From Ignavibacteriota bacterium (GTDB lineage Bacteria; Bacteroidota; Ignavibacteria; UBA10030): DNA of 64,000 nucleotides. Under the pieces are notes generated by a model that worked only from the letters and a program-made list of their open reading frames with translations, was not told where the DNA came from and made no database searches. The stretch is taken from NCBI GenBank assembly GCA_963701295.1, contig OY969585.1:1856001-1920000 (forward strand), written 5' to 3'. Below are positions 25,022 through 40,332 of this stretch, piece after piece (the stretch's first letter is position 1; every line of letters starts with the position of its first letter). A program made the position numbers and the translations under genes.

Positions 25022-27655
25022 ATGGAAAATTCTAAACATATCGAACGTCGGACAGGATATTTTTTTCTGCTCATCTTTGTTCTCCTTGCAGCAGGTATTT
25101 TCACAGGTGCCTACTTTGCTTACCATAACTATGAGAAAAACTACCGCGCTGAGATAGAAAACCAGCTTTCTGCTGTAGCAGGTTTGAAAGTCAACCAATT
25201 AGTTCAGTGGCGAAAAGAACGGCTGGAAGATGGACAAGTCTTTTACAAGAACGATGTATTTTCCGCAATGGTGAAACGGTACATCCAAAACAAGAATGAC
25301 CGCGATGCGAAGACAGGAATTCTAACGTGGGTAGGGCAAGTGCAGAGAGCTTATAACTACGATCTCATGATGCTGCTAGACGCACACTTGAATACGATAG
25401 TAGTGTTCCCGGAGAATAAGGAACGGGCGCGTTTAGTCATCGACCAAAGAAATACTGAAATGCTGACGTCAGGAAATATTGCTTTTCAGGATTTTTACCG
25501 GAACGATCAAGATCAACACATCTATCTAAAAATTCTTGTCCCGATTCTGGAAAATCGTTTCCCAAAACGATTGATTGCTGTGCTCGCGTTACGGATCAGT
25601 CCTGAGGAGTACCTTTATCCACTCATAAAAAAATGGCCCACACCGACTCGGACATCCGAAACGTTAATCATCCGCAGGGATGGAAACGATGCGTTGTTCT
25701 TGAATGATCTTAAATTCCACAAGGATGCTGCATTGAATCTGCGGATTCCGTTGGAAAGTAAAGATGTTCCAGCTGTGAGAGCAGCGCTAGGTCAGACAGG
25801 AATCGTCGAAGGTATAGACTATCGCGGAGTGCCGGTAATTGCCGATGTGCGCGCAGTTCCTGATTCACCTTGGTTCCTGGTCGCGCGTATGGATATGGAG
25901 GAGGTGTACGCACCTCTGAAAGAAAGATTGTGGTTGATGATCATTCTTGTTGGTGCTTTACTTGGTGGCGCGGGCGCCAGCGTGGGATTTGTATGGCGCC
26001 AGCAGCGCAGCCGTTTCTACCAGGAGCAATATGAATCAGTGGAAGCGCTTCGGAATTCAGAAACTCGTTATCGTCGGCTCTTCGAGGCAGCGAGAGACGG
26101 CATTCTCATCCTCGATGCCGAAACAGGGATGATCACAGATGTAAATCCGTTTTTGATTGAAATGCTGGGTTACACGCATGAACAGTTTCTTGGAAAGAAG
26201 CTGTGGGAATTGGGATTCCTCAAAGATATTATAACTAATGAGGAGAAATTTTTGGATTTGCGGCAGAAAGAGTACGTACGGTATGACGACTTACCATTAG
26301 AAACCTCAGACAGACGAAGAATCGACGTGGAGTTTGTCAGCAATGTTTATCTTGTCGACCATCACAAAGTCATCCAATGCAATATACGAGATATCACCGA
26401 ACGCAAGCGGGCAGAAGACGCGCTGGTGCAAGAGAAAGCTTTCTCGGACAAATTGCTTAATGCGCCGCAAGACACTGTCTTTTTATTTGAACCTGCCACG
26501 GGCAAACCTATCAGATGGAACAAACGCTTTGCGGAGGTGAGCGGTTATAATGATGAAGAGATAATTGGTATGAAAGCTCCTGACGATTTCTACAGCGAAG
26601 AAGACCTTAAGAAAGCTAAGGAGAGTATGGTCAAAATAATTGCTGAAGGGCATGGCGTTGTTGAGATGTCTCTTATTACGAAACAGGGAGCGCATATTCC
26701 GTTCGAGTATGTTGCAACCGTCGTCGAGACAGTAGATGGAAAAAAAATATTTCTATCTATCGGCAGAGATATCACTGAACGCAAGCTAGCGGGAGCATAT
26801 GGAGAATTGGGCAGAGAAATCCTACAGATACTCAACGAGCCGGGAGATATACAGGATTCTCTACAGCGCGTCCTCGCCGCATTGAAGACAAGGACTGGGT
26901 TCGATGCCGTGGGCATTCGCCTGCAGGACGGGGAGGACTTTCCGTATTTCACCCAGGAAGGTTTTTCCAAGGATTTTTTGTTGACTGAAAATACGTTGAT
27001 CGAGCGTGGTCCTGATGGTGGAGTGTGCCGGGATAAAAACGGCAACGTCAATCTTGAATGTACCTGCGGGTTGGTTATTTCCGGCAAGACCGACCCGGCC
27101 AATCCACTTTTTACACCGGGGGGAAGCTGCTGGATCAACGACTCATTCCCACTTCTGGATATCCCGCCTGGTGAAGATCCCCGGTATCATCCACGCAACC
27201 GTTGTATTCATAAAGGCTATGCCTCTGTTGCGCTAGTACCCATTCGGAACAAGGAAAGGATTGTAGGTTTGATTCAGTTCAACGACCGGCGCAAAGGACG
27301 TTTCACTCTCAACACAATTGCACTCCTGGAAGGAATCGCATCGCATATCGGAGTAGCTCTGATGCGTAAGCAAGCGGAAAAAGAACTGCAGGAATCCATG
27401 AAGGAACGAGAGAATTTAATTCGAGAACTTCAGTATGCTTTGGAGAACATTAAAACTCTGCAAGGACTTATTCCCATTTGTTCAAATTGTAAGAAAATTA
27501 GAGACGATAAAGGATACTGGAATCAAGTAGAAGGCTATATCAGTAAACATACTGATGCAAAATTTACGCATGGGATATGTCCAGATTGTTCAAAGGAACT
27601 CTATGGGGATCTCTATGAGAAAGCGGTTGAAAAGCAAAACAAGAAAAACATGTGA
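25022..27655 (+). CDS. Membrane sensor: TM-Cache-like-TM-PAS-PAS-GAF + C-terminal CxxC..HGICxxC module; no kinase domain
   Basis: Two TM segments, GIDYRGVPV..PWFLVA Cache-like end, DITERK twice, Cys-rich GAF, LIPICSNCKKIRDDKGYW..FTHGICPDC. Confidence 0.85.
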   Translation: MENSKHIERRTGYFFLLIFVLLAAGIFTGAYFAYHNYEKNYRAEIENQLSAVAGLKVNQLVQWRKERLEDGQVFYKNDVFSAMVKRYIQNKNDRDAKTGILTWVGQVQRAYNYDLMMLLDAHLNTIVVFPENKERARLVIDQRNTEMLTSGNIAFQDFYRNDQDQHIYLKILVPILENRFPKRLIAVLALRISPEEYLYPLIKKWPTPTRTSETLIIRRDGNDALFLNDLKFHKDAALNLRIPLESKDVPAVRAALGQTGIVEGIDYRGVPVIADVRAVPDSPWFLVARMDMEEVYAPLKERLWLMIILVGALLGGAGASVGFVWRQQRSRFYQEQYESVEALRNSETRYRRLFEAARDGILILDAETGMITDVNPFLIEMLGYTHEQFLGKKLWELGFLKDIITNEEKFLDLRQKEYVRYDDLPLETSDRRRIDVEFVSNVYLVDHHKVIQCNIRDITERKRAEDALVQEKAFSDKLLNAPQDTVFLFEPATGKPIRWNKRFAEVSGYNDEEIIGMKAPDDFYSEEDLKKAKESMVKIIAEGHGVVEMSLITKQGAHIPFEYVATVVETVDGKKIFLSIGRDITERKLAGAYGELGREILQILNEPGDIQDSLQRVLAALKTRTGFDAVGIRLQDGEDFPYFTQEGFSKDFLLTENTLIERGPDGGVCRDKNGNVNLECTCGLVISGKTDPANPLFTPGGSCWINDSFPLLDIPPGEDPRYHPRNRCIHKGYASVALVPIRNKERIVGLIQFNDRRKGRFTLNTIALLEGIASHIGVALMRKQAEKELQESMKERENLIRELQYALENIKTLQGLIPICSNCKKIRDDKGYWNQVEGYISKHTDAKFTHGICPDCSKELYGDLYEKAVEKQNKKNM

Positions 27656-27676
27656 CCTTCGGTAGGATATCGAGTA

Positions 27677-27722
27677 ACCTTCGGAAGGTCTCAGAGGTTA
27701 AGCAGAGATACCTTCCGAAGGT
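27677..27722. repeat. REP-like palindromic element, copy 2
   Basis: Perfect 13-bp inverted repeat ACCTTCGGAAGGT / ACCTTCCGAAGGT; extra half-site ACCTTCGGTAGG at 27655. Confidence 0.75.
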
Positions 27723-27740
27723 GCCTTAAGGAGTACTAAA

Positions 27741-30700
27741 ATGGCACAACATAAGAAAGAAACAATAAAGCCGAAAACTTCCTCACCTGAAAAATCACAT
27801 TCGCCATATATTCTTCTCGTTGAAGATGAACCGACCCATGTTGCAATTATGCGCCATACTATTCAATCCGCTAACCCGAATGCTATGGTGAAGGTTGCGG
27901 GTTCCTTGCAGGAGTATCGCAGCGCCATTTCGAAATCTTTGCCGGAAATAGCTTTGATCGATATGTATCTTCCGGATGGAAAAGCTCTCGAGGTGCTGAC
28001 ATCTCCGCTGGAAGCCGGGTCGTTCCCGATTGTAGTGATGACAAGTTCCGGCGATGAGAAAATTGCTGTCAAGGCGATGAAAGCAGGGGCGCTCGATTAT
28101 GTAGTGAAATCTCCCGATGCTTTTAAAGAAATACACCGCACCTTAGAGCGTACTCTGCGCGAGTGGAAACTGATCCATGAGCGTAAAAGGGCTGAAGAAT
28201 TACTACAGGAAACAGAGAAAAAGTACAAGACAATTATTGAAGGTGCTGCAGAGGGTATTTTGATAGCTGATCTGGAAACCAGAAAATTCAAATACGCAAA
28301 TCCTGTAATTTGTTCAATGCTCGGTTACAGCGCTGACGAGCTTCTCGGATTATCCGTAAATGACATTCACCCGCCAGAGCATCTGCCGGAAGTAATCACT
28401 GTATTCGAATCACAGGCTCGTGGTGAAATTATGCTTTCGCCCCCAATCCAATGTTTGCGTAAAGATGGGTCTGTATTTTTTGTAGAAATAAATACAGCGA
28501 ATGTAATTATTGATGGAAAACCATGTAACGTAGGATTTTTTACAGATATCACTGAGCGTAAGCGGGCGGAACAACAGATTGCCGATGCACTATATTACAT
28601 CGAAACTGTATTCGAAGCTTCACCAGTTGGCATCATCACGTACAAAGAGAGCGGTGAAGTGATCTCTGCGAACCGTGCAGCCGCGATAATTGTAGGCACA
28701 ACAATTGAACAACTGCATAAGCAAAACTTCAAGGAACTCAAGTCATGGGAGCGATCCGGTCTCCGGGAAGCTGCGAATGCCGCGCTCGCCTCAAGCGATG
28801 AAAGGCGCATCGAAGTTCATGACGTTAGCACATTCGGCAAGGAAGCTGTGTTTGCCGCGCGTTTTGTGCCATTCATGCACCAGGGTCGAAAAGAACTATT
28901 GGCTCTATTCTCAGACATCACCGAGCGCAAACGGGCAGAAGAGGCACTGTGGGAAAGTGAAAATCGTTTTCGATTGATTACAGAACAGTCCCTAATGGCT
29001 GTTGGGATCATACAGGATGGTGTATACAAATATTTCAATAAAGCTTATGAGGAGATAAGCGGATACTCTGCAGATGAGATAAAGAAATGGAAACCTTTTG
29101 AGTTCACTAAGACCGTTCATCCCGATGACCTGAACTTTGTTACAGACGAAATCAAAAAGAAGCAGATCGGCCATCCTGATGTTGTACCTTGCTACTCTTT
29201 CAGGGGGATACATAAGAGTGGCGATATCAGATGGATAGATTTGTATTCTAAGACAGTGATATATGAAAACAGGTCGGCCGATCTGGTTACATTCACTGAC
29301 ATCACCGAGCGCAAGCGGGCGGAGGAAGTATTAGAATCTCAACATGCATTGCTTACTGCTATGATTAATAGCGCAAGCGATATTTTTATTTTCTCCTTGG
29401 ATAAAAATTACAGCTATACCACATTTAATGAAAAGCATCGTAAAGAAATGAAACGAGTTTGGAATGCTGACATTAAAATTGGAATGAATCTGCTTGATTG
29501 CATGCAGATGCCGGAACTACGAGAACTGGTAAAACAAAGCATAGATCGTGCGTTAAAGGGAGAAGCTTTTTCGGAAATACAACACCAACCTAATCTGAAT
29601 ATTTATTACGAGTTCAGTTGGAATCCGATCCATCAAAAAGAAGAAATTGTCGGAGTTACAGTTTTCATAAGAGATATCACCGAGCGCAAACTCGCCGAAG
29701 AGGTGATCAAGCAGACAGAAGAGAATTTCCGCCGTTCTTTGGAGGACTCTCCTTTGGGAGTTCGCATCGTTACCGCTCAAGGTGATACAGTTTATGCCAA
29801 CCGGGCGATTCTGGATATCTATGGTTACGACAATCTTGAGGAACTGAAAAGAACCCCCGTAAAGGATCGCTATACTCCAGAGAGTTATGCCGAGTTCGAA
29901 ATAAGAGAGGAGAAAAGAAAACAGGGCGAGTTTGGTCCGTCTGAATATGAAATAAGCATCGTGAGGAAAAATGGCGAAGTTCGCTATGTTCAGGTTTTCC
30001 GCAAAGAAGTCTTTTGGAATGGCGCAAAACAGTTTCAGGTCATTTACCAGGACATCACCGAGCGCAAGCGGGTGGAGGAAGCACTCAGCCAAAGCCTGGA
30101 ACGCTACCGATTGTTACACGATTATGCACCGGTTGGAATTCTATTAGTGAATCGATCAGGACAAATCCTTGAGACGAATCCCGCGGCGCTTCAAATTCTT
30201 GGATCACCCTCTGCTGAGGCGACAAAGGGAATAAACCTTTTGACATTTCCACGTCTCATCGAGGCCGGGATTTCAACTGCCTTCCAGCATTGTATTGAAA
30301 CAGGTCGGACTGTCTTTGGCGAGTATCCATATACAACCAATTGGGGAAAATCAATTCGTATACGTTTGCAATTTGTCCCTATTTTTGATGATCATGGTCA
30401 GGTGGTTCTGGTGCATAATATCTTTGAGGATATTACCGAGCGTAAGATATTAGAAGAACAACTGCGCCAAATGCAGAAGTTAGAAGGATTAGGTACGCTC
30501 GCTGGAGGGATCGCGCATGACTTTAATAATATTCTTGGAATTATTTTGGCATATAATTCAAGTGTCGAAAGGTCTAAAGGTGATGCCAAGAAATTAGGCC
30601 TTGCTACTGAGACAATCACGAAAGCAGTACAGCGCGGCAAAACACTTGTTCAACAAATATTAACGTTTGCGAGAAAAACGGATACAGCATTTGGTCCGGT

Positions 30701-31601
30701 GAATGTCAATGATGTTATCATGGAAATTATGAGCATGATTTATGAAACGTTTCCTAAGACTTTGACCTGTTCGCAGAATTTCGATAAATCGATCCCTTAC
30801 ATCAGTGCCGATCGTTCCCAGTTAAATCAAATGTTGCTGAATCTTTGCATGAATGCACGAGATGCGATGCCAAGCGGCGGCGTTCTTACTATCAGTACGC
30901 ATATTGTCTCTGTTGCAAACCTGCGTAATCAGCATCCGGATGCTGCTGCGAGCAGTTATGTCTGTATTGAAGTGAGTGATACGGGGGAAGGGATGACCGA
31001 AGAGATACGAAAGAGAATCTTTGAGCCGTTTTTCACCACGAAGGGAATAGGAAAAGGAACCGGATTGGGATTGTCTGTGGTGTTCGGAGTTGTTCAAACT
31101 CATAGGGGATTTATTGATGTAGAAAGTGAACTTGGCGAAGGAACTACATTCCGAATATATTTGCCCATATCAGAAGTGACAAAACCGATTATTGAAAAAG
31201 CCGAAGAAACATGGGAAGAAATAGCGGGTGGAACAGAAACATTGCTGGTTGTAGAGGATGAAGAGATGCTGATGATGTCTCTTCAGATGGTGCTCGTTGA
31301 TAAGGGATACAAAGTTCTTTCAACTCAAGATGGATTTAAGGCACTGGTAATCTATCAAGAGAGAAAAAAGGATATCGCTCTTGTGCTGACCGATCTCGGA
31401 TTGCCTACTATGACCGGATTGGAAGTGTGTCAACATATCAAAGCAATCAATCCGAATGAACGTGTTATCCTGGCGACAGGTTTTCTTGATCCGGATATGA
31501 AATCAGAATTTCTGAAAGCGGGGATACAGCATTTTCTCTATAAACCGTATGATCTCAGGAATGTTCTAAAAGTTGTGCGGGAAGTGTTGGATGAGAAATA
31601 A
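27741..31601 (+). CDS. Hybrid sensor histidine kinase (REC-6xPAS-HisKA-HATPase-REC), paralog of 16797
   Basis: N-terminal REC+PAS closely match the 16797 gene; six DITERK; AHDFNNIL; GTGLGL; C-terminal receiver. Confidence 0.93.
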
Positions 31602-31623
31602 TCATTATCCAACACAGGAATAG

Positions 31624-31860
31624 ATGAAAAAGATCTTAGCCGAATTAGACTATCTCGTGTATGTTTCCTGGCGAGGTCCTACACTTCTCTCCAATCATCA
31701 CCGCTTTCATGAGCGTCCTGAAAATGATGTTTTGAAGATGACCCGTGAATGTTCGCTCAAAGGAAGGTTTGAGAGTAAACCATTCGAAGCATCCGACAAA
31801 ATTCAGTGCTCAAAACAAGCATAATCCTGAAAGAATACTATGTACTTAAAACCAGGAAGA
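31624..31860 (+). pseudogene. Possible decayed HUH (RAYT/IS200-like) transposase fragment; contains repeat copy 2
   Basis: LLSNHHRFH (like LMPNHxH), GRFESK (like GRFKS), and HNP in a shifted frame; next to a REP-like remnant. Confidence 0.3.
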
Positions 31861-31904
31861 CTTCGGATGGTTAGAGAGTTTTAATCGAGATGCCTTCCAA
31901 GACT
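31860..31904. repeat. Degenerate REP-like palindrome, copy 3
   Basis: ACTTCGGATGGT...GAGATGCCTTCC resembles ACCTTCGGAAGGT...GAGATACCTTCC of copy 2. Confidence 0.45.
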
Positions 31905-31969
31905 ACTCCGATAACAAACCTATCCTCTTTCTTGTAAAGTTTCGATAAAAAAAAGTATATTATACTATT

Positions 31970-32974
31970 ATGAGGCAATTTACAGTTACATCATTATTCT
32001 GTGCACTGATGCTTATCTCTGGTTGCAAGGATGCTCCTCGTGACAATCCGCTGGATCCAAGTTCGCCTCAATACACAAACACGGCATCAGTGAAAGGCCA
32101 AGTTCTTTTACTTGGTCAAAACAGCGGTATCGTTTCAGCAAGCATCACTTCATTGCAAGACAGTGTGAGTGTTTTAAGTGATGCAGGTGGAAATTATTCT
32201 TTCAGCAGCCTGACTGTTGGTACACAAACGCTGGTATGCACCAAAGAGAACTTTGTTCCCGACACACAACAGATTATTCTTCAGAGCCGTACAACGAAGG
32301 AAGTTCTATTTGAATTAAACGGTGCGCCTTATGTTCTGGCTCAAAATATACTCACCAGGAAAATTGATCAGTACTATCCGAGTGCGCAATATTTTGTCGA
32401 TGTTACTGCTTCCGTCACTGATCCGAATGGTATAGCGGATGTGGACTCCGTTTGGTTCGCTGTTGATACCCTTCTCTTCCCGATGGATTATTCAGTATCG
32501 ACCAAACAATTTCAAATCACCATTTATAAGTACGATTTACCAACAAACACCATCCAATGGCTTGTCAACAGACCATTGAGAATTCGTTCGAAAGATCGCA
32601 GCGATGCCGTCAATCTCAGTACTCCGTTTTTCGTATCAAGAATCATCGAAAATACAGCGACACCCATCTATCCAACAATCAACACAACCACAATGCAAAT
32701 GGATACCACTGGTTCTACACCGCTGTTCCAATGGTTACCGCCGGATGTGACATTCAATTATACGTACACCCTCACGCTCTCAAGTGTTGTGTCAGGTATA
32801 CAAAACGTGGTATGGACATATACAAAACTGCTTTCATCTTCTTTGCAACTCCAGTTTCCAGCTGATAACAGCGGATCGACTTTATCAGCCGGTGAGTATG
32901 AGTGGACTATTTCTGTCGTCGATGATTTTGGAAATTACTCACGTTCAAAAGCAGCACCGTTTATGGTACAATAA
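31970..32974 (+). CDS. Lipoprotein with CarboxypepD_reg-like and Ig/FnIII-like beta domains
   Basis: Lipobox LISG-C then KDAPRDNPLDP; SDAGGNYSF..LTVGTQTLVC; beta-rich C-terminus (GEYEWTISV). Confidence 0.75.
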   Translation: MRQFTVTSLFCALMLISGCKDAPRDNPLDPSSPQYTNTASVKGQVLLLGQNSGIVSASITSLQDSVSVLSDAGGNYSFSSLTVGTQTLVCTKENFVPDTQQIILQSRTTKEVLFELNGAPYVLAQNILTRKIDQYYPSAQYFVDVTASVTDPNGIADVDSVWFAVDTLLFPMDYSVSTKQFQITIYKYDLPTNTIQWLVNRPLRIRSKDRSDAVNLSTPFFVSRIIENTATPIYPTINTTTMQMDTTGSTPLFQWLPPDVTFNYTYTLTLSSVVSGIQNVVWTYTKLLSSSLQLQFPADNSGSTLSAGEYEWTISVVDDFGNYSRSKAAPFMVQ

Positions 32975-32976
32975 GT

Positions 32977-34455
32977 ATGGAACAGATACATCACGATAAC
33001 TTCAATGCCCTCTATGAGATTGCACGATCTATCAACTCCATTCTGGAACCGGATGAACTGCTCGAGCGTGTGCTTGAAATCGCCATGACACATCTTTCTG
33101 CTGAGCGTGGGTTTGTTATTCTTACTGATCCCAATAAGGAGAACGGGTATGATGTTGTAACGATGAAAAATTTTTCTTCGCAACGAACAAGCAATGAATA
33201 TGCCGCTTCCTCTTCAGTAGTGACCAATGTTCTCAATACCGGTGAAGCAGTACTGACCTTTGATGCACCAAACGACGAGCGATTTGAATCATCTGTGAGT
33301 ATCATTGCCCAGAAAATATTGTCCATTATTTGTGTCCCGCTTCGAATAGGAGAGAGGACATTTGGTGCTGTGTATTTGGACAGCAGTGCCATGCTGAAAG
33401 AATTTAACGACGAGTCATTGAAATTTCTAACCATCTTTGGTAATCTTGCTGGTATTGCCATCGAGAATGCAAAACGTTATACCGAGCTTCGAAATCAGAA
33501 TGAACGGTTGAAAAACGAAGCTGATGTTACACATTTATTCGCAAACCTCATTGGTAAAAGTGATACATGGAAAAGTGCGTTGGAAATCGTTCAACGCGTG
33601 TTGGATATTGATGTGGCCATCCTTATTACGGGAGAAAGTGGAACAGGGAAGGAACTTGTTGCACGCGCTATCCACGAGAATGGTCTGCGCAAAGGACTTG
33701 CCTTTGTGGCTGTGAATTGCTCTGCTATTCCCGAATCGTTAATTGAAAGTGAATTGTTTGGTTATGTTCGCGGTGCATTTACTGGTGCGAATGCGGTCAA
33801 GAAAGGATTGGTCGAAGTCGCTGATGGAGGCACTCTCTTCCTGGATGAAATCGCTGATCTGCCATTTGCTCTTCAATCGAAACTTCTCCGATTGCTTCAG
33901 GAGAAAGAATACCGCCGTATTGGAGACACGGTAAATCGATCTGCAGATATTCGCATCATTGCTGCAACCAACAAGGATTTGAAAAACGAAGTGAAGAATG
34001 GGGCATTGCGCGAAGATCTCTATTTCCGTTTAAATGTCGTTGATATTCATCTCCCACCGCTGCGCGAACGGAGAGATGATATTCCTCTCCTGGCAAAACA
34101 TTTTCTCCAACGCTCAGCGCAAATGTATAAACGATCCATCGACAGTATCCATCCAGATGCTATGCATATGCTGCTTGTAAATCCATGGAAGGGGAATGTA
34201 CGGGAATTTCAAAATGTCATTGAGCGTGCGGTAGTTCTCTGTCAGGGGACACAATTGACACCTGCTGATCTTGTGCTCGATTTTACTGAGCGAAATTCCA
34301 TTCTTCCCAATTCAATGACGCTTGAAGAGATTGAACGTCAGATCATTGAAACGACATTGGATGAGATGGATGGAAATAGAAGAAGGACAGCGGAGAAGTT
34401 AGGTGTTTCCTTACGATGGCTTCAGTACCGTTTGAAAGAATGGAATAAAGTGTAA
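32977..34455 (+). CDS. GAF-domain sigma54-dependent transcriptional activator (bEBP, Fis-type HTH)
   Basis: N-terminal GAF; GESGTGKE, ESELFG, GAFTGA, LFLDEI, DLYFRLNV, WKGNVRE; GNRRRTAEKLGVS. Confidence 0.95.
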   Translation: MEQIHHDNFNALYEIARSINSILEPDELLERVLEIAMTHLSAERGFVILTDPNKENGYDVVTMKNFSSQRTSNEYAASSSVVTNVLNTGEAVLTFDAPNDERFESSVSIIAQKILSIICVPLRIGERTFGAVYLDSSAMLKEFNDESLKFLTIFGNLAGIAIENAKRYTELRNQNERLKNEADVTHLFANLIGKSDTWKSALEIVQRVLDIDVAILITGESGTGKELVARAIHENGLRKGLAFVAVNCSAIPESLIESELFGYVRGAFTGANAVKKGLVEVADGGTLFLDEIADLPFALQSKLLRLLQEKEYRRIGDTVNRSADIRIIAATNKDLKNEVKNGALREDLYFRLNVVDIHLPPLRERRDDIPLLAKHFLQRSAQMYKRSIDSIHPDAMHMLLVNPWKGNVREFQNVIERAVVLCQGTQLTPADLVLDFTERNSILPNSMTLEEIERQIIETTLDEMDGNRRRTAEKLGVSLRWLQYRLKEWNKV

Positions 34456-35987
34456 TGCCGTTTACGATTGAAGAGAAAATCAGCGAGAGCAGTTTTACCA
34501 GTGTCTATCGTGCATTTGATGGAGTGCTGCAACGACGTATCTTGTTGAAGGTGCTCCACAAGCACCATGCCACTGATAATGATCTGTATCAGCGGTTTGT
34601 GCGGGAAGCTCAGACTTGCGCTGCACTTCGCTCCGAGCATATTGTCCAGGTCTACGAATTAATTGAATATGAAGGATCGCCGGCAATTGTGTTGGAATTT
34701 GTCGATGGTACTTCACTCAAGAATCTCATCGCTACAGGGACCACTCGTTCGTTGAAATATGCAAGAAAAGTTGCATTGCAAACCCTCCGCGGACTTGTCG
34801 TTGCACACGACAGGGGAATCATTCATCGTGATATCAAACCCGGAAATATTCTTGTGGTGACAGACGGAACATTGAAGGTTACAGATTTTGGATTGGCATA
34901 TCTTGCGTCTGTTCCAACTATAACGGCGCAAGGGATGGTGCTTGGAACACCTGCATATATGTCTCCGGAGCAAATTCGCCACGAAGAGATCGACCAAAGA
35001 ACAGATCTCTTTTCTCTGGGCGCAACTTTGGTTGAAGTGCTGACTGGCAACCGCCTCTTCGAAGGGGCATCATATGCGGAGTGCGCCAAGAAGATTCTTT
35101 CTTTTCAAGTGGATATACTTGATTATCTTGTGGAGAAATCATCTGCTGAGTTCGTGAAATATCTAAAACTTCTCTTGGCGCCGAAGAAACAAAACAGGTA
35201 CGCGACATCAAGGGAGGCACTCTATGCACTGGAACAAGACGAATCGAGCATATTCATTTCTATTCCATTCAAAGCACCAATGATAAAACGTCGAACAGTA
35301 TTTCTGGTCGGAGCAACACTTCTCCTTGGAGCTTTAGCGATTGTTTTGATTACAATCGATCATTTTTCGTATTTCCGAAATTCTGGTCCAACTCAGCCGA
35401 TAGTATTGTCGGATTCAACTGCAGCAAGAATAACGACAGATGAAGAGATGCAGAGAAAACTCAGTATTTCTTCTCCGGTTCAATCTGAGCCTATGCAGCA
35501 ACCAGAAGAACTCAAGCAACGGGAAATTTCAACGACAGCGACCACACCGCTATCCATGGATTCAGGCACCGTTCTTCTAACCAGTACACCGTGGGCAAAG
35601 GTATATGTTGATAGTGTTTTTATCGGGGAAACTCCCATCAGTAAACCTCTGACTCTTTCTGCCGGAAAACATTCTGTGACGTTCACGCACCCATCCTTTG
35701 ATCCGATTCTTCGGACCATTACGGTGCCGCCGAATAGGGAACTTTATGTTACGGCAAATTTTATTGAGAATGCTGGATTCCTTAGTTGTATTGCTACTCC
35801 ATGGGCAGAGGTGTACGTCGATGAACAATATAAAGACACAACGCCTTTGGAGAAACCAATCGTGCTGTCACCCGGGAAACACCATGTGCGTTTTAAAAAT
35901 GCATCGTTCGTTGATGTTCTCCGCGAGGTGATAATCAAATCCAAGGATACAACTTCACTGAGCATCTTTTTTAAGAAACAACGATGA
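34455..35987 (+). CDS. Hanks-type Ser/Thr protein kinase with TM helix and two C-terminal PEGA-like repeats
   Basis: HRDIKPGN, TDFGLA, GTPAYMSPEQ, DLFSLG; TM VFLVGATLLLGALAIVLI; TPWAxVYVD..TP..LSxGKH twice; start overlaps the upstream stop (TAATG). Confidence 0.92.
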   Translation: MPFTIEEKISESSFTSVYRAFDGVLQRRILLKVLHKHHATDNDLYQRFVREAQTCAALRSEHIVQVYELIEYEGSPAIVLEFVDGTSLKNLIATGTTRSLKYARKVALQTLRGLVVAHDRGIIHRDIKPGNILVVTDGTLKVTDFGLAYLASVPTITAQGMVLGTPAYMSPEQIRHEEIDQRTDLFSLGATLVEVLTGNRLFEGASYAECAKKILSFQVDILDYLVEKSSAEFVKYLKLLLAPKKQNRYATSREALYALEQDESSIFISIPFKAPMIKRRTVFLVGATLLLGALAIVLITIDHFSYFRNSGPTQPIVLSDSTAARITTDEEMQRKLSISSPVQSEPMQQPEELKQREISTTATTPLSMDSGTVLLTSTPWAKVYVDSVFIGETPISKPLTLSAGKHSVTFTHPSFDPILRTITVPPNRELYVTANFIENAGFLSCIATPWAEVYVDEQYKDTTPLEKPIVLSPGKHHVRFKNASFVDVLREVIIKSKDTTSLSIFFKKQR

Positions 35988-36766
35988 TACAGAAAGTATT
36001 CTTTGCCTTCATTCTCATAGCAGTATTCGCGCACGGTGCATGTGCTCAGGAGGATACTACACATTCAACCTTGCAGGCAATTGAAGTTCTCTACAATACC
36101 GGCTCATACCTATCTGCAGAATTGGAAGCCCGGCGCCTTCTTGAATTTTCAGCGTTGAACGATTCTGTACGTGTGGCTGTTCATAAGTATATTGCATTTT
36201 CTTTAATCGCCCAAGGAAAATCGGAACAGGCAAAAGAACATTTCATGTCAGTGCTTAAGCTTGCACCCGACTATGATCTTGATCCTGTTTATACCTCTCC
36301 CAAGATTCTTGTCATCTTTAAGGAAACACAGCAACTCTTCCTTTCATCAAAGGAACCTCAAAAAGGAGCCGTCAGAAGTCCGGTGTCGATCGAGCGCTCT
36401 GCCATTACGTATCGGACAATTCTTTTTCCCGGGTGGGAACAATTACACGAAGAGAGAACGACAACAGGAACCCTATTTCTTGGAGCCGGCATCACAACAT
36501 TAGGAGCTGGAATTGCTTTTGAGTTTTTGCGGAGTTCTGCGCGGCAAAACTATTTATCTGAAACGCATTCATCAGAATTTAATGAGAAGTATGAGATTTA
36601 TGACCGATATTATAAAGCAGAAATTATTTCGTTTGTTGCATTTGCGGTCGTGTATGCAGCATCAGAAATAGAGGTGTTCCAAGCCCAACGGTATCCGCCC
36701 ATCTCATTTGAATCAAATCTATCCAAGTCACGAGGAACAACTCTTACAATTGCCATTCGTTTCTGA
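35984..36766 (+). CDS. Exported TPR-like protein with hydrophobic C-terminal segments
   Basis: Signal peptide; AFSLIAQGKSEQAKEHFMSVLKLAPDYDLDP..SPK helical repeat; ILFPGWEQL followed by hydrophobic stretches; ATGA overlap with kinase. Confidence 0.7.
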   Translation: MIQKVFFAFILIAVFAHGACAQEDTTHSTLQAIEVLYNTGSYLSAELEARRLLEFSALNDSVRVAVHKYIAFSLIAQGKSEQAKEHFMSVLKLAPDYDLDPVYTSPKILVIFKETQQLFLSSKEPQKGAVRSPVSIERSAITYRTILFPGWEQLHEERTTTGTLFLGAGITTLGAGIAFEFLRSSARQNYLSETHSSEFNEKYEIYDRYYKAEIISFVAFAVVYAASEIEVFQAQRYPPISFESNLSKSRGTTLTIAIRF

Positions 36767-36852
36767 GGCGCAGGATATGCAGTATGGTGCACATCTTGCA
36801 CAAGTGAAGAAAAGGGATCCCTCATATCGAATAGATTTCCTAATCTTTTGTG

Positions 36853-36868
36853 TGGCATATGGATTGCA
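36853..36868 (+). promoter_or_regulatory. Sigma54 (-24/-12) promoter
   Basis: TGGCATATGGATTGCA = GG-N10-GC, matching TGGCAC-N5-TTGCW, about 60 bp upstream of the ATG at 36928. Confidence 0.8.
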
Positions 36869-36927
36869 TCATTTTTTGTGAAATAATCCATATTTGTCAA
36901 AAAATGCCTATAAATTAGGAGAGAGAA

Positions 36928-38946
36928 ATGAAAAATAAATACTGGTTTTTTGCAGCAGCCGTATTAACGATAGCACTTATTTTTACTCAGTCCCTTTTTT
37001 CACAAACCGCGTTACCACCACATTCTCGAAATCAAATTAGGTTTATCTCTCAACCGCCTCAATATGGTCAACGCGGCGTTCCTTATTCCTATACGGCTCA
37101 AGCCGTCACTGCAGACACCACTGCGGTTATCAACTATTGTGCTGGTATTCTCAATCCCATTGGGCTGACAATTGATTCGATATCGGGTGTTGTCAATTGG
37201 ATCCCTGCAGCGAAAGGATGGTATCCAATTACCCTGATAGCGAGGTCGAATAAAGGAGGCAATGCCGTCCAATCTTTTATGGTGACAGTAGTCGGCGGCA
37301 ATGGTATTGTGCAAGGACAAGTGACGGATACATCAGGTAATAGCATTTCTAATATTATTATCGAAGTGCTGCAAGTTTTAAGCACAGATCCTATTCCTCT
37401 CAATACTATTTCTATCAGTAATGAATGTTATTCATACTCCGCAAAAACAGATAAAAATGGAATGTATCGGATTTCTCATATTGATCCCGGTACGTATAAA
37501 GTACGTGCAGTATCACCTACGCCCCAGTATCTAAGCCAGTGGTATGATGGACAGTCTGACGCTAAGGATGCGAATACGATCACTATTTCCGATTCTTCTT
37601 CTAATACTCCCACCGTGGTCAATTTTTCTCTTCGCGGTATTGTCAGATTGCCAAAGATTGCTGTATCAGGTATTGTTACCGATACGAATCTTCTTCCAAT
37701 AAAAGTTGCGAATATCTTTTTTGTACGATCCGGATTTGCGTTGAATACTAAGGACACTGTTGACGACTTCCGAGAATATTTCAACATGAATGCTATGAAG
37801 GACGATTGCAGACTCGAAGGAAAATCGCAGAATGTATACAGCGCCAAAACCGACTCGTCCGGTACGTATTCGCTTCAGATTCCACAGGGATCATATATTG
37901 CCTTTGCCAAAGCTCGGGGATATGCAACGGAATTCTATTTGGGACAATCCGATCTGCTGTCGGCAAATCAGATAGTACTGACACATGACAGCGCAGGTAT
38001 CAACTTCGCGCTTGCGCAGCTTCCAAAGGTTGTTCTTGGTACAATCACAGGGAGCGTGCTCGATTCAGCACAAGGTATCGGTGTTCCTTCCCGAATTATT
38101 GCATCTCGAGATCGATGGACTGTGAAAGATAAATTTAACTGCTTCCGCTCTTACGTCGTTGATACAGATTCCCTTGGTACATTTTCAGTCGATTCATTAT
38201 TACCGGGATCGTACTTTGTGTTTGCAGTACCGCTAGGTAATTATTCTCCTGCTTTCTATTCAACAGATACTACAAGTATACGATGGAAGAGAGCAACCAG
38301 AGTGGATATTAGTGGGAACACTGTTAATGATATCGATATTTATGTGCACGAGATTCCTGATTCCATGAATGGGTACTCCAGTATTTCTGGCGCTGTTCGT
38401 TTTTCATCGGGTTCCATCTCAATGGCAGGAGCCCTTGTCTATGCAGCAAATCGGAATTCCGTAGTCTCAGGATATGCAATCACGGATGAGAAGGGGAATT
38501 ACAATATAGAAGGCCTGGTTCCCGGTGCATATACCGTGTCGGTCGATAAGGTAGGATATGAGACAGCATCACAATCTGCTACCGTTTCCTACAGTGCCGC
38601 AGGAAATCTAAACGCCACTGTCGACCTGTCAATCGATGAAGTAGCCACAGGTGTGGCCCAAACTTCTTCAACACAGCAGCCGACGCAATTCATGCTTGAA
38701 CAAAATTTTCCGAATCCATTCAATCCATCAACAACGATTAACTACACATTGAATCAATCTGGCATTGTTACGTTGAAGGTGTATAATCTTCTTGGCCAAG
38801 AAGTGCGCACATTGGTCAATGGATTCCAAAATGCAGGAAGTTATCATACGATGTTTAATGCGCAAGGACTTTCCAGCGGTATCTATTTCTATCGCTTAAA
38901 AAATCAAAACAGCATTCAGACTCGGAAAATGATTCTCTTACAATAA
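36928..38946 (+). CDS. Secreted protein: Ig/cadherin-like domain + several CarboxypepD_reg-like domains + T9SS type A C-terminal domain
   Basis: Signal peptide; GLTIDSISGVVNW; repeated TDxxGxY..PGxY; LEQNFPNPFNPSTTI..LSSGIYFYRL..KMILL. Confidence 0.85.
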   Translation: MKNKYWFFAAAVLTIALIFTQSLFSQTALPPHSRNQIRFISQPPQYGQRGVPYSYTAQAVTADTTAVINYCAGILNPIGLTIDSISGVVNWIPAAKGWYPITLIARSNKGGNAVQSFMVTVVGGNGIVQGQVTDTSGNSISNIIIEVLQVLSTDPIPLNTISISNECYSYSAKTDKNGMYRISHIDPGTYKVRAVSPTPQYLSQWYDGQSDAKDANTITISDSSSNTPTVVNFSLRGIVRLPKIAVSGIVTDTNLLPIKVANIFFVRSGFALNTKDTVDDFREYFNMNAMKDDCRLEGKSQNVYSAKTDSSGTYSLQIPQGSYIAFAKARGYATEFYLGQSDLLSANQIVLTHDSAGINFALAQLPKVVLGTITGSVLDSAQGIGVPSRIIASRDRWTVKDKFNCFRSYVVDTDSLGTFSVDSLLPGSYFVFAVPLGNYSPAFYSTDTTSIRWKRATRVDISGNTVNDIDIYVHEIPDSMNGYSSISGAVRFSSGSISMAGALVYAANRNSVVSGYAITDEKGNYNIEGLVPGAYTVSVDKVGYETASQSATVSYSAAGNLNATVDLSIDEVATGVAQTSSTQQPTQFMLEQNFPNPFNPSTTINYTLNQSGIVTLKVYNLLGQEVRTLVNGFQNAGSYHTMFNAQGLSSGIYFYRLKNQNSIQTRKMILLQ

Positions 38947-38980
38947 ATCACACACTTTTTTAGTCGTTTGGCATTTGAAG

Positions 38981-39015
38981 AGGGCTGTCTCGATCTGAGA
39001 CAGCCCTATTTTTTT
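38981..39015 (+). terminator. Intrinsic terminator
   Basis: AGGGCTGTCTC-GATCT-GAGACAGCCCT then ATTTTTTT. Confidence 0.85.
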
Positions 39016-39018
39016 CTA

Positions 39019-39038
39019 TAGCGGGGGAGGGATTGAAC
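39019..39038 (-). repeat. att-like copy of the tRNA-Met 3' end (distal island boundary)
   Basis: TAGCGGGGGAGGGATT, 16 bp identical to 53906-53921, then GAAC after a 1-nt gap. Confidence 0.8.
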
Positions 39039-39437
39039 TCAGTCTTAAATTCGAGACTCTTTTCAGTGATTTTCAATAAAAAACAAGAAATCATTAAGTT
39101 TGACATTACCATGCGATCTTACTATTAGCACATTATGGATATTGGGCTACTGGATGATCTTGGACTAAAAACATATATCTCTAGGCTAATATTACTTTCT
39201 ATATTAATAGAGTACATGAATAATCAAGAGGAGTATAAGATTATTTAAAACAGAAATTAAAAAAAAGAAGCCTATGATATTCATTAATATCTAACCGCAT
39301 ATCTATTGAAAAAAGGATCGATCCTATTTCTAAATGTACTTCTTATTCTCATTTTTCGGATTACCCATTGACTATCTTGATTTTAATGGCACAAAATAGT
39401 ATTTATGAATCGTTCTTAAAATAATTCAGGGTACATA

Positions 39438-39482
39438 TTGATAGAGAATAAATTTTCTGATACAATACAACATTGTGTTGTA
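39438..39482 (+). promoter_or_regulatory. Sigma70-type promoter with overlapping palindromic operator
   Basis: TTGATA-N17-TACAAT with TG extension; TACAACA-TTG-TGTTGTA inverted repeat at 39466-39482. Confidence 0.55.
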
Positions 39483-39516
39483 ATCAAACAATAATTCTCG
39501 GCCTTTCATCAATCCC

Positions 39517-40332
39517 ATGGAACTACACCAAAAATATTCCATCATCGAGGTTGCTCACCTTGTGAAGAAGTTTAAAGATTTCGCTGCGGTTGATAATATA
39601 TCGTTTTCTGTTGAAGCTGGAGAGATATTCGCGTTCTTGGGTCCCAATGGCGCAGGGAAATCCACGACCATCAAAATGCTTATTACGCTTCTTACACCTA
39701 CAAGCGGTACGGCTATAATTGATAGACACGATATTGCACATCATGCTTCCGAGGTACGTAAAACGATTGGTTATGTACCGCAGATGATTTCCGTGGATGG
39801 TACGCTCACAGCATACGAGAATCTTATGCTGATGGCGCGGCTCTACGATATTCCAAGAGCAGAGCGCAAAGAGCGCATCAAAGAGGTACTATTGTTTTTA
39901 AAGCTCGAGGAACAGACGGATTCACTTGTTAGAACGTTTTCCGGCGGTATGGTCCGCAAGATGGAAGTCGGGCAAGCCATGCTTCATCGTCCCAAAGTAT
40001 TGCTGCTCGACGAACCAACAACAGGACTTGATCCTGTTGCACGGCAAAATGTTTGGGAGCATCTTCTTGAGTTAAGGGACACCTTCGGTACGACTATCTT
40101 CTTCTCCACACATAATATGGAAGAAGCGGATGGAGTGAGCGATCGCATCGCTGTGATGAACAGGGGAACAATTGCTGCGATGGGGAATGCAGAAGAACTG
40201 AAGGCAAAAACCGGAAAGCTGAATGCCACGCTCGAAGAAGCTTTTATTTTCATTACCGGCAATAAGCTTCAGGAGACAGGCAACTTCCGAGAAATCCGCA
40301 GAGCAAGAAAAGTTGAACGAAGATTAGGATAG
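39517..40332 (+). CDS. ABC-2/DrrA-type exporter ATP-binding protein
   Basis: GPNGAGKST, FSGGM, LLLDEPTTGLDP, STH. Confidence 0.92.
   Translation: MELHQKYSIIEVAHLVKKFKDFAAVDNISFSVEAGEIFAFLGPNGAGKSTTIKMLITLLTPTSGTAIIDRHDIAHHASEVRKTIGYVPQMISVDGTLTAYENLMLMARLYDIPRAERKERIKEVLLFLKLEEQTDSLVRTFSGGMVRKMEVGQAMLHRPKVLLLDEPTTGLDPVARQNVWEHLLELRDTFGTTIFFSTHNMEEADGVSDRIAVMNRGTIAAMGNAEELKAKTGKLNATLEEAFIFITGNKLQETGNFREIRRARKVERRLG

Follow-up and report, generated by a model that had tools for sequence, protein, structure and literature searches.

The DNA analyzed here, a 64,000-nucleotide stretch of contig OY969585.1 from an Ignavibacteriota bacterium (the window), carries four coupled genes for a lipoprotein, a sigma-54 activator, a Hanks-type Ser/Thr kinase, and a TPR/DUF5683-like protein (the TPR protein). 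They are followed by a predicted promoter with an upstream activating sequence (UAS) and by a gene, termed the target, for a predicted cargo protein of the type IX secretion system (T9SS). Judged from sequence, this regulatory cassette is real and conserved; its predicted enhancer and promoter are well supported, and its predicted regulon is a small set of surface proteins. The features of the locus, including its open reading frames (ORFs), are as follows.

31970–32974, + strand: lipoprotein ORF, 334 aa, with a Cys19 lipobox, an N-terminal RDNPLDP motif, and three tandem beta-sandwich domains
32977–34455, + strand: sigma-54 activator ORF, 492 aa, GAF-AAA+-helix-turn-helix (HTH), with GAFTGA and Walker A/B motifs
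34455–35987, + strand: Hanks Ser/Thr kinase ORF, 510 aa, with one transmembrane helix and two PEGA domains
35984–36766, + strand: TPR/DUF5683-like protein ORF, 260 aa, with an exported TPR-like domain, two long hydrophobic helices, and a C-terminal beta-hairpin ending in Phe
36769–36800, + strand: twin palindrome CGCA-N5-TGCA / TGCA-N5-TGCA, the predicted UAS of the activator
36853–36868, + strand: −24/−12 sigma-54-type promoter TGGCATATGGATTGCA, 52 bp downstream of the UAS
36928–38946, + strand: target gene for a T9SS Ig-repeat protein, 672 aa, with a signal peptide, He_PIG and CarboxypepD_reg/SdrD-like Ig repeats, and a T9SS type A C-terminal domain
38981–39007, + strand: intrinsic terminator, a hairpin followed by a T run (z = −4.0)

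The initial annotation, made from the letters of the window alone, had described four tightly coupled genes and a terminator 3′ of the target. Both are borne out by the coordinates above and by the three junctions, which are a 2-bp gap between lipoprotein and activator genes (TAA-gt-ATG), a TAATG overlap between activator and kinase genes, and an ATGA overlap between kinase and TPR genes. The target protein was likewise correctly described as an Ig/CarboxypepD_reg protein with a T9SS tail: Pfam finds He_PIG and CarboxypepD_reg repeats and a Por_Secre_tail, and the sorting domain scores 47.6 bits against a cut-off of 23 (TIGR04183, NCBIfam), which together with the signal peptide marks it as T9SS type A cargo. 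The sequence search for solved structures gave no match for this protein. Dioxygenase matches were read as reflecting the common beta-sandwich fold, their NCBIfam scores being far below cut-off.

Conservation of the cassette

In near relatives, a scan with the TPR-protein alignment gave 98 pattern matches, which resolved into 68 loci. Neighbors were judged at these loci by tblastn, the contig being too short for a verdict on the kinase at 1 locus, the activator at 10, the lipoprotein at 15, and the target at 5. At the evaluable loci, the kinase (67 of 67), the activator (58 of 58), and the lipoprotein (52 of 53) lie upstream of the TPR gene, and a homolog of the same T9SS Ig-repeat target lies within 3.5 kb downstream of it in 61 of 63.

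A distant TPR profile matched in 42 of the 301 genomes of the phylum, full-length in 31, and found no match among the 63 and 22 genomes of two of the phylum's largest families. Twenty of the 31 full-length matches and two earlier loci were inspected. The order lipoprotein-activator-kinase-(Kelch T9SS protein)-TPR is present in 21 of these 22 distant loci, the 22nd being interrupted by the contig end, and the Kelch gene is present in 18. Gene order is maintained at 25–45% protein identity, and the gene after the TPR gene differs among these loci. The earlier proposal of a co-conserved four-gene cassette is therefore upheld by both sets of counts. As for its companion question, whether the downstream target varies, the target hardly does so in near relatives, differs in distant loci, and is joined in the regulon by unlinked genes.

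Homologs carry the labels of Bacteroidota or Ignavibacteriae metagenome assemblies, and there are identical-protein records from Rhodothermus marinus DSM 4252 (kinase ACY47409.1, TPR protein ACY47407.1), R. bifroesti (WP_210373335.1 and WP_210373333.1), and Calditrichia; the cassette ranges over Ignavibacteria-type genomes, Rhodothermus, and Calditrichia. It is patchy among 41 close genomes, being present in 17, including 11 of the 15 other genomes of the genus. At six Ignavibacteria-type loci (L196, L198, L200–L202, and L207), the cassette is followed by an ORF of ~121 aa (STAS-like by eye) and one of ~408 aa (U32 peptidase-like by eye), with a −24/−12 element ahead of them in four of the six.

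Promoter, twin palindrome, and regulon

The sequence TGGCATATGGATTGCA is the sole exact −24/−12 match in the window and one of 10 exact matches genome-wide; with one mismatch allowed, the window holds 6 matches against 5.0 expected. The motif by itself is not above chance, and conservation is what establishes the predicted promoter. When spacers were aligned on the promoter, two palindromes of the form YGCR-N5-TGCR, 5–8 bp apart, became apparent, a feature absent from the initial annotation. The pair is found in 50 of 65 spacers (three too-short spacers and that of locus L090 were left out), and in 48 of the 65 it is followed 35–65 bp later by a −24/−12 element, compared with 0 in 50 shuffles. 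The distance between pair and promoter is 49–54 bp in 42 spacers and 62–64 bp in 6; the latter are six Kelch-bearing loci, probably of one lineage, and would thus count as a single event and speak only weakly for helical phasing. The pattern of twin palindrome plus promoter was found genome-wide in 12 of 17 cassette genomes versus 1 of 24 without the cassette, and in 0 of 41 with the reversed-pattern control. In distant cassette loci the twin palindrome was mostly not seen.

These observations bear on whether the neighborhood or the promoter match could be due to chance, with no common function. The chance level of the −24/−12 motif alone would allow it, but gene order is kept across strongly diverged proteins and the fixed-spacing enhancer is absent from shuffles and from the reversed control, such that this explanation is largely refuted and hardly credible. 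The sigma-54-type promoter that had been proposed ahead of the target stands as a prediction, as its GG/GC element is conserved in spacers together with an upstream enhancer and rpoN is present in the genome. A sigma-54-type promoter with a dedicated enhancer is thus supported by these comparisons.

The source genome contains only two sites even at two mismatches, the window site and one at G000:191633 (G000 being its assembly, a single 3.64-Mb contig) ahead of two lipoprotein genes. This unlinked lipoprotein family occurs in 28 of 41 genomes, and the element precedes a family gene in 6 of 11 cassette genomes and in 0 of 17 others. In the tree, the six element-bearing genomes fall within a clade of seven (support 96/98) whose seventh member, G002 (99% complete), has neither cassette nor element, a distribution that points to one gain and probably one coupled loss with the cassette. 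The unlinked target (G000:C1:188876–191531; L105:4877–7532) encodes two paralogous lipoproteins of 322 and 309 aa, for which Pfam gave nothing significant; the solved-structure search for the unlinked lipoprotein gave no match.

Further genes were observed behind the element. They are an AHSA1-like protein in G008 and G013 (L150:1788–2234 and L159:997–1446), a serpin lipoprotein inserted ahead of the target (L050:10709–11953, with a similar ORF in L052), and a second exported protein in G030 (L161:1–1284). At unlinked sites in G004 (L142:1501–1880) and G001 (L162:1501–1880), the promoter occurs in duplicate along with a broken 5′ piece of the target gene. In one lineage (L056–L059, L064, L066–L068, L071–L075, and L079; e.g. 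L059:2372–2478), a 5′ leader of ~150 nt before the target forms a conserved hairpin with compensatory changes in 9 of 13 pairs (14 sequences); a search of five of these loci against Rfam gave no meaningful match. The window's own leader is ~60 nt long and has no such hairpin.

The promoter of the four-gene operon was not located, as sigma-70-like sites were at chance level in the sequence scan (17 versus 19), and an Rfam search of positions 31000–40000 gave no match. Two large PAS-rich signaling genes (window 25022–31601) lie upstream of the cassette and are not kept beside it in relatives.

Activator, kinase, and envelope proteins

The activator consists of a GAF domain (residues 24–164), Sigma54_activat (PF00158, 230 bits), and HTH_8, with GAFTGA at 266–271. 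Pfam finds no receiver or FHA domain, confirming the earlier description of a bacterial enhancer-binding protein with a GAF domain only. This is the layout of a group-3 (GAF) enhancer-binding protein: N-terminal GAF, AAA+ with Walker A/B and GAFTGA, C-terminal HTH, and no receiver. Its best NCBIfam match, below cut-off, is NifA. In 54 aligned members of the cassette family, used here for all residue counts, the AAA+ core has G[AS]FTGA in 53 and D290/E291 in all; the HTH helix residues S478-x-R480-W481 are invariant, consistent with one common binding site.

The GAF residues Ser78, Ser108, and Ser116 are also invariant in the 54 rows, and the G-x-x-G pocket motif of phosphodiesterase (PDE)-type GAFs is replaced by SSS. 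The closest solved GAF structures are those of PDE5 and NifA; in the PDE5 alignment, Ser78 and Ser108 fall at the WNKGIVG and EVD segments, which we take to line the cyclic-nucleotide pocket. Two other GAFs of the source genome keep the glycine-rich PDE-like motif.

A connection between such activators and kinases recurs outside the cassette. Among the 120 best activator homologs of 910–2595 aa, a length window that favors fusions, 114 have a GAF and 100 a fused kinase, mostly as kinase-STAND-TPR-GAF-AAA-HTH, and Ser78 and Ser108 are 100% conserved in both the cassette family and the kinase fusions. Both GAF activators of the source genome adjoin a Hanks kinase gene (2 of its 3 kinases), whereas the other 12 activator-like ORFs do not; of these 12, 10 open with a segment that by eye resembles a receiver, and 2 lack any sensor domain. 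The second GAF activator does not have the SSS motif, and kinase pairing is therefore not confined to the SSS subtype. Control of the activator by the kinase is likely by association, through gene coupling, fusions, and the second genomic pair. These fusion and adjacency data do not tell phosphorylation from phospho-dependent binding.

The second pair (G000:C1:2520535–2526925; L036:8536–14926) comprises an 811-aa kinase-transmembrane-TPR protein with a normal glycine loop, unrelated to the cassette kinase, whose gene overlaps that of the second GAF-only sigma-54 activator. Downstream of the pair come a candidate CGGCAC-N5-TTTGA element and genes for a T9SS beta-helix protein and a lipoprotein. 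A similar pair of activator and kinase-TPR genes is present in G028 (L139).

An alternative that we regard as unlikely is that a small-molecule ligand switches the activator, as in an ordinary group-3 GAF protein, and that the co-transcribed kinase phosphorylates another protein. The nearest solved GAFs, named above, would fit this, and Myxococcus xanthus Pkn4 reportedly phosphorylates phosphofructokinase, not an activator. Set against it are the unbroken kinase-activator adjacency in a cassette with no other conserved cytoplasmic gene, the repeated fusion of this GAF subtype to kinases, and the loss of the PDE-type motif; in its favor, known GAF activators are ligand-regulated according to a review (PMC7175178).

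The kinase has a Pkinase domain (residues 4–250), a hydrophobic transmembrane helix (283–301), a linker of 50–86 aa, and two PEGA stretches. Its catalytic lysine, alphaC glutamate, HRD-K-N, and DFG elements are all present, with K32, E51, D126, K128, N131, D144, and T165 found in 54 of 54 rows. The closest solved kinase domains are PknB and StkP (E 7e-74); the protein is not of the PASTA type, as PEGA domains were found and NF033483 scores 227 bits against a cut-off of 450. At the position of the glycine-rich loop, the window kinase reads ISESSFT and distant rows read KKDEHA and ASGPTA. Activation-loop T157 is kept in 51 of 54 rows but missing from the R. marinus and R. bifroesti kinases, and Rhodothermus-like rows have a shortened, acidic activation loop.

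That acidic loop and the family-wide loss of the glycine-rich loop could suggest a kinase with little catalytic activity whose role is to keep the activator bound, as a membrane anchor or an anti-activator, until it is released by a signal from the envelope, in the manner of PspA or NifL. We consider this quite improbable given the invariance of all catalytic and metal-binding residues and the retention of T157 in most rows. The kinase is probably an active enzyme with an unusual nucleotide lid.

The lipoprotein has a CarboxypepD_reg match in Pfam, the lipobox cysteine, and no visible catalytic site. Its AlphaFold2 model shows three tandem beta-sandwiches (pLDDT 92.5), with tandem Ig, pilin, and adhesin chains as loose fold matches at a template modeling (TM) score of about 0.3. 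The residues after the cysteine, checked as a surface-export signal, include 1–2 acidic ones in 45 of 52 rows parsed. A profile similarity between PEGA and the lipoprotein (probability 16%) was rejected.

The TPR match of the TPR protein is weak in Pfam (E 0.002, below cut-off). In its model (pTM 0.41), a loose linker joins a helical-repeat domain to two long helices, and the chain ends in a beta-hairpin; a fold search gave only generic TPRs, with no match at E ≤ 0.001. The C-terminal residue is F or W in 59 of 68 relatives, which presumably resembles an outer-membrane targeting signal. For DUF5683 (PF18935), the window protein gives no match and 4 of 34 relatives match weakly (best E 0.001); one Rhodothermus homolog is named DUF5683. 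The TPR/DUF5683-like family comprises 1707 clusters at 50% identity. Complex prediction for PEGA (366–510) with the TPR domain (22–126) scored 0.01 against a mark of 0.32, which is no answer and was counted neither way.

The genomic setting of the TPR gene suits other roles as well as sensing. Of 25 Kelch-bearing loci, 16 have a −24/−12 element 0–21 bp past the kinase stop codon and ahead of Kelch and TPR, compared with 0 of 50 Kelch-less loci. The element was found in L213 but not in L203 or L204. With its own element in these loci, the TPR gene is therefore likely an ancestral regulon member that became coupled to the kinase once Kelch and its promoter were lost. The one-way scheme of the initial annotation, with the TPR protein signaling into the kinase, is weakened accordingly: the protein may be output or feedback rather than sensor, and a feedback or assembly role fits as well as sensing. 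Taken further, the TPR protein, and perhaps the lipoprotein, could be a product and not a sensor, serving to anchor the exported Kelch and Ig proteins in the outer membrane or to assemble them, while the kinase senses something else. The promoter distribution and the aromatic C terminus agree with this, but the TPR gene stays with the kinase where Kelch and the large target are lost, and in the window it overlaps the kinase stop codon. We rate this possibility as rather unlikely, if less so than a ligand-switched activator.

Proposed mechanism and known systems

We lean, by a little, toward reading the cassette as a switch that senses the envelope: its membrane Ser/Thr kinase would activate the GAF-type sigma-54 activator, which would bind the twin palindrome and turn on a few exported surface proteins. 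The starting point is seen in the sequence: four coupled genes, the twin palindrome and −24/−12 element at fixed spacing, a T9SS target, and a terminator, in a genome with rpoN (a 477-aa ORF with an RpoN box at G000:3216165), 106 T9SS-tail matches, and sprA (TIGR04189, 775 bits, with the C-terminal part in a separate 313-aa frame). The sprA matches (G000:C1:3470871–3477363) are split over 2037-aa and 313-aa frames by a natural split, a frameshift, or an assembly error.

Very probably, the activator reads the twin palindrome and drives the neighboring T9SS gene as well as the lipoprotein gene at G000:190563–191531, which is unlinked and has a tandem paralog behind it. The kinase would, with fair probability, control the activator via the GAF domain, either by phosphorylating the activator or by offering a phospho-residue bound by the serine-lined GAF pocket in place of an FHA domain. 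More speculatively, the PEGA domains on their tether of 50–86 residues might report the state of outer-membrane partners, namely the lipoprotein and the TPR protein, the latter probably being an induced feedback part as well. As the element precedes nothing but exported noncatalytic proteins, lipoproteins, a serpin, and an AHSA1-like protein, our best guess for the signal is a damaged or incomplete surface layer.

Several points weigh against this switch. The conservation datasets overlap in part, and the genomes are kin and so not independent. The twin-palindrome motif was derived from the same loci in which it was counted, and the independent genome-wide tests therefore weigh more; there, an exact match is missing in 5 of 17 cassette genomes. 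G007, the sole cassette-less genome with the pattern, retains target and promoter element although no cassette was found in it, and G012 has cassette and element without target. The glycine-rich loop GxGxxG is present in 51 of 100 fused kinases but kept in 0 of 54 family kinases; three of these 54 rows, all Rhodothermus-like, have another residue in place of T157, and the cassette contains no phosphatase gene. The fusion search was enriched for fusions by its length window. Finally, the characterized GAF activators NorR, NifA, and FhlA are listed as ligand-regulated in the review (PMC7175178, Table 1).

A broader idea is that Hanks kinases might have a receiver of their own in the serine-lined GAF subtype, with its invariant Ser78 and Ser108. 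Kinase and GAF activator would then form a Ser/Thr analog of the two-component systems that act on sigma-54, found both in fused form, as widespread kinase-STAND-TPR-GAF-activator proteins, and as this trans-envelope cassette, whose kinase has no glycine-rich loop. We offer it tentatively and consider it doubtful.

The initial annotation did not recognize a described system here, and no published description of the cassette was found in the literature searched, whose coverage excludes most subscription journals. The available part of PMC12316311 makes no mention of Rhodothermus, Ignavibacteria, or T9SS, and DUF5683 appeared in the accessible portions of the literature searched only as an entry in two listings. 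The cassette likely forms an undescribed switch that would let a eukaryote-type kinase activate the genes of exported surface proteins. As far as its accessible text goes, the enhancer-binding protein review lists GAF activators solely as ligand sensors, with no kinase-controlled class (PMC7175178). Whether sigma-54 activators can be under Ser/Thr control could be tested directly with this conserved kinase/GAF-activator pair, which has a defined predicted site, two promoters identified by prediction, and a carrier in culture. If true, the switch would connect the envelope to the regulation of T9SS cargo genes and would give a first context to the large uncharacterized TPR/DUF5683-like family; it also raises the question of whether kinases of a family lacking the glycine-rich loop have activity.

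Overall, the cassette combines features of several known systems. Its kinase shares with mycobacterial PknB and with StkP the order kinase-transmembrane helix-extracytoplasmic repeats, as well as the closest solved kinase domains, but has PEGA instead of PASTA domains and no glycine-rich loop. In M. xanthus, FHA-domain enhancer-binding proteins were reportedly proposed by Jelsbak in 2005 to bring Ser/Thr-kinase input to sigma-54 activators. As in those myxobacterial systems, a Ser/Thr kinase gene adjoins the activator gene, but the activator has no FHA domain and the target is T9SS cargo, which places the cassette outside that group. In language-model features, the TPR protein is similar to a Myxococcota cluster (0.96).

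The group-3 GAF proteins NifA, NorR, and FhlA act with a UAS and −24/−12 promoters (PMC7175178). The cassette activator is like them in its GAF-AAA+-HTH layout, GAFTGA motif, paired upstream sites, and sigma-54-type promoter; it differs in having no known ligand, a coupled Hanks kinase, the helix SLRWLQY, YGCR-N5-TGCR sites, and surface-protein targets. In TagQ/TagR-PpkA-Fha1 of Pseudomonas aeruginosa, a lipoprotein, a periplasmic protein, and a membrane Ser/Thr kinase form a trans-envelope sensor whose output is assembly of the type VI secretion system through Fha1, not transcription (PMC13713981). The shared set of lipoprotein, envelope protein, and membrane Ser/Thr kinase makes it the best working analogy. 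The cassette itself is outside the Tag system, with no Pfam or NCBIfam match to TagQ/TagR or an FHA substrate and only a sub-cut-off TssQ-family match on the TPR domain. Kinase-associated extracytoplasmic function (ECF) sigma factors are transcription factors that likewise have neither an FHA nor a receiver domain and are under the direct control of a Ser/Thr kinase encoded with them (PMC7826278); the proposed kinase target in the cassette is a sigma-54 activator and not a sigma-70-family factor. The cassette would work most like a TagQ/TagR-PpkA sensor connected to an activator of the NifA type, following the logic of kinase-linked ECF factors.

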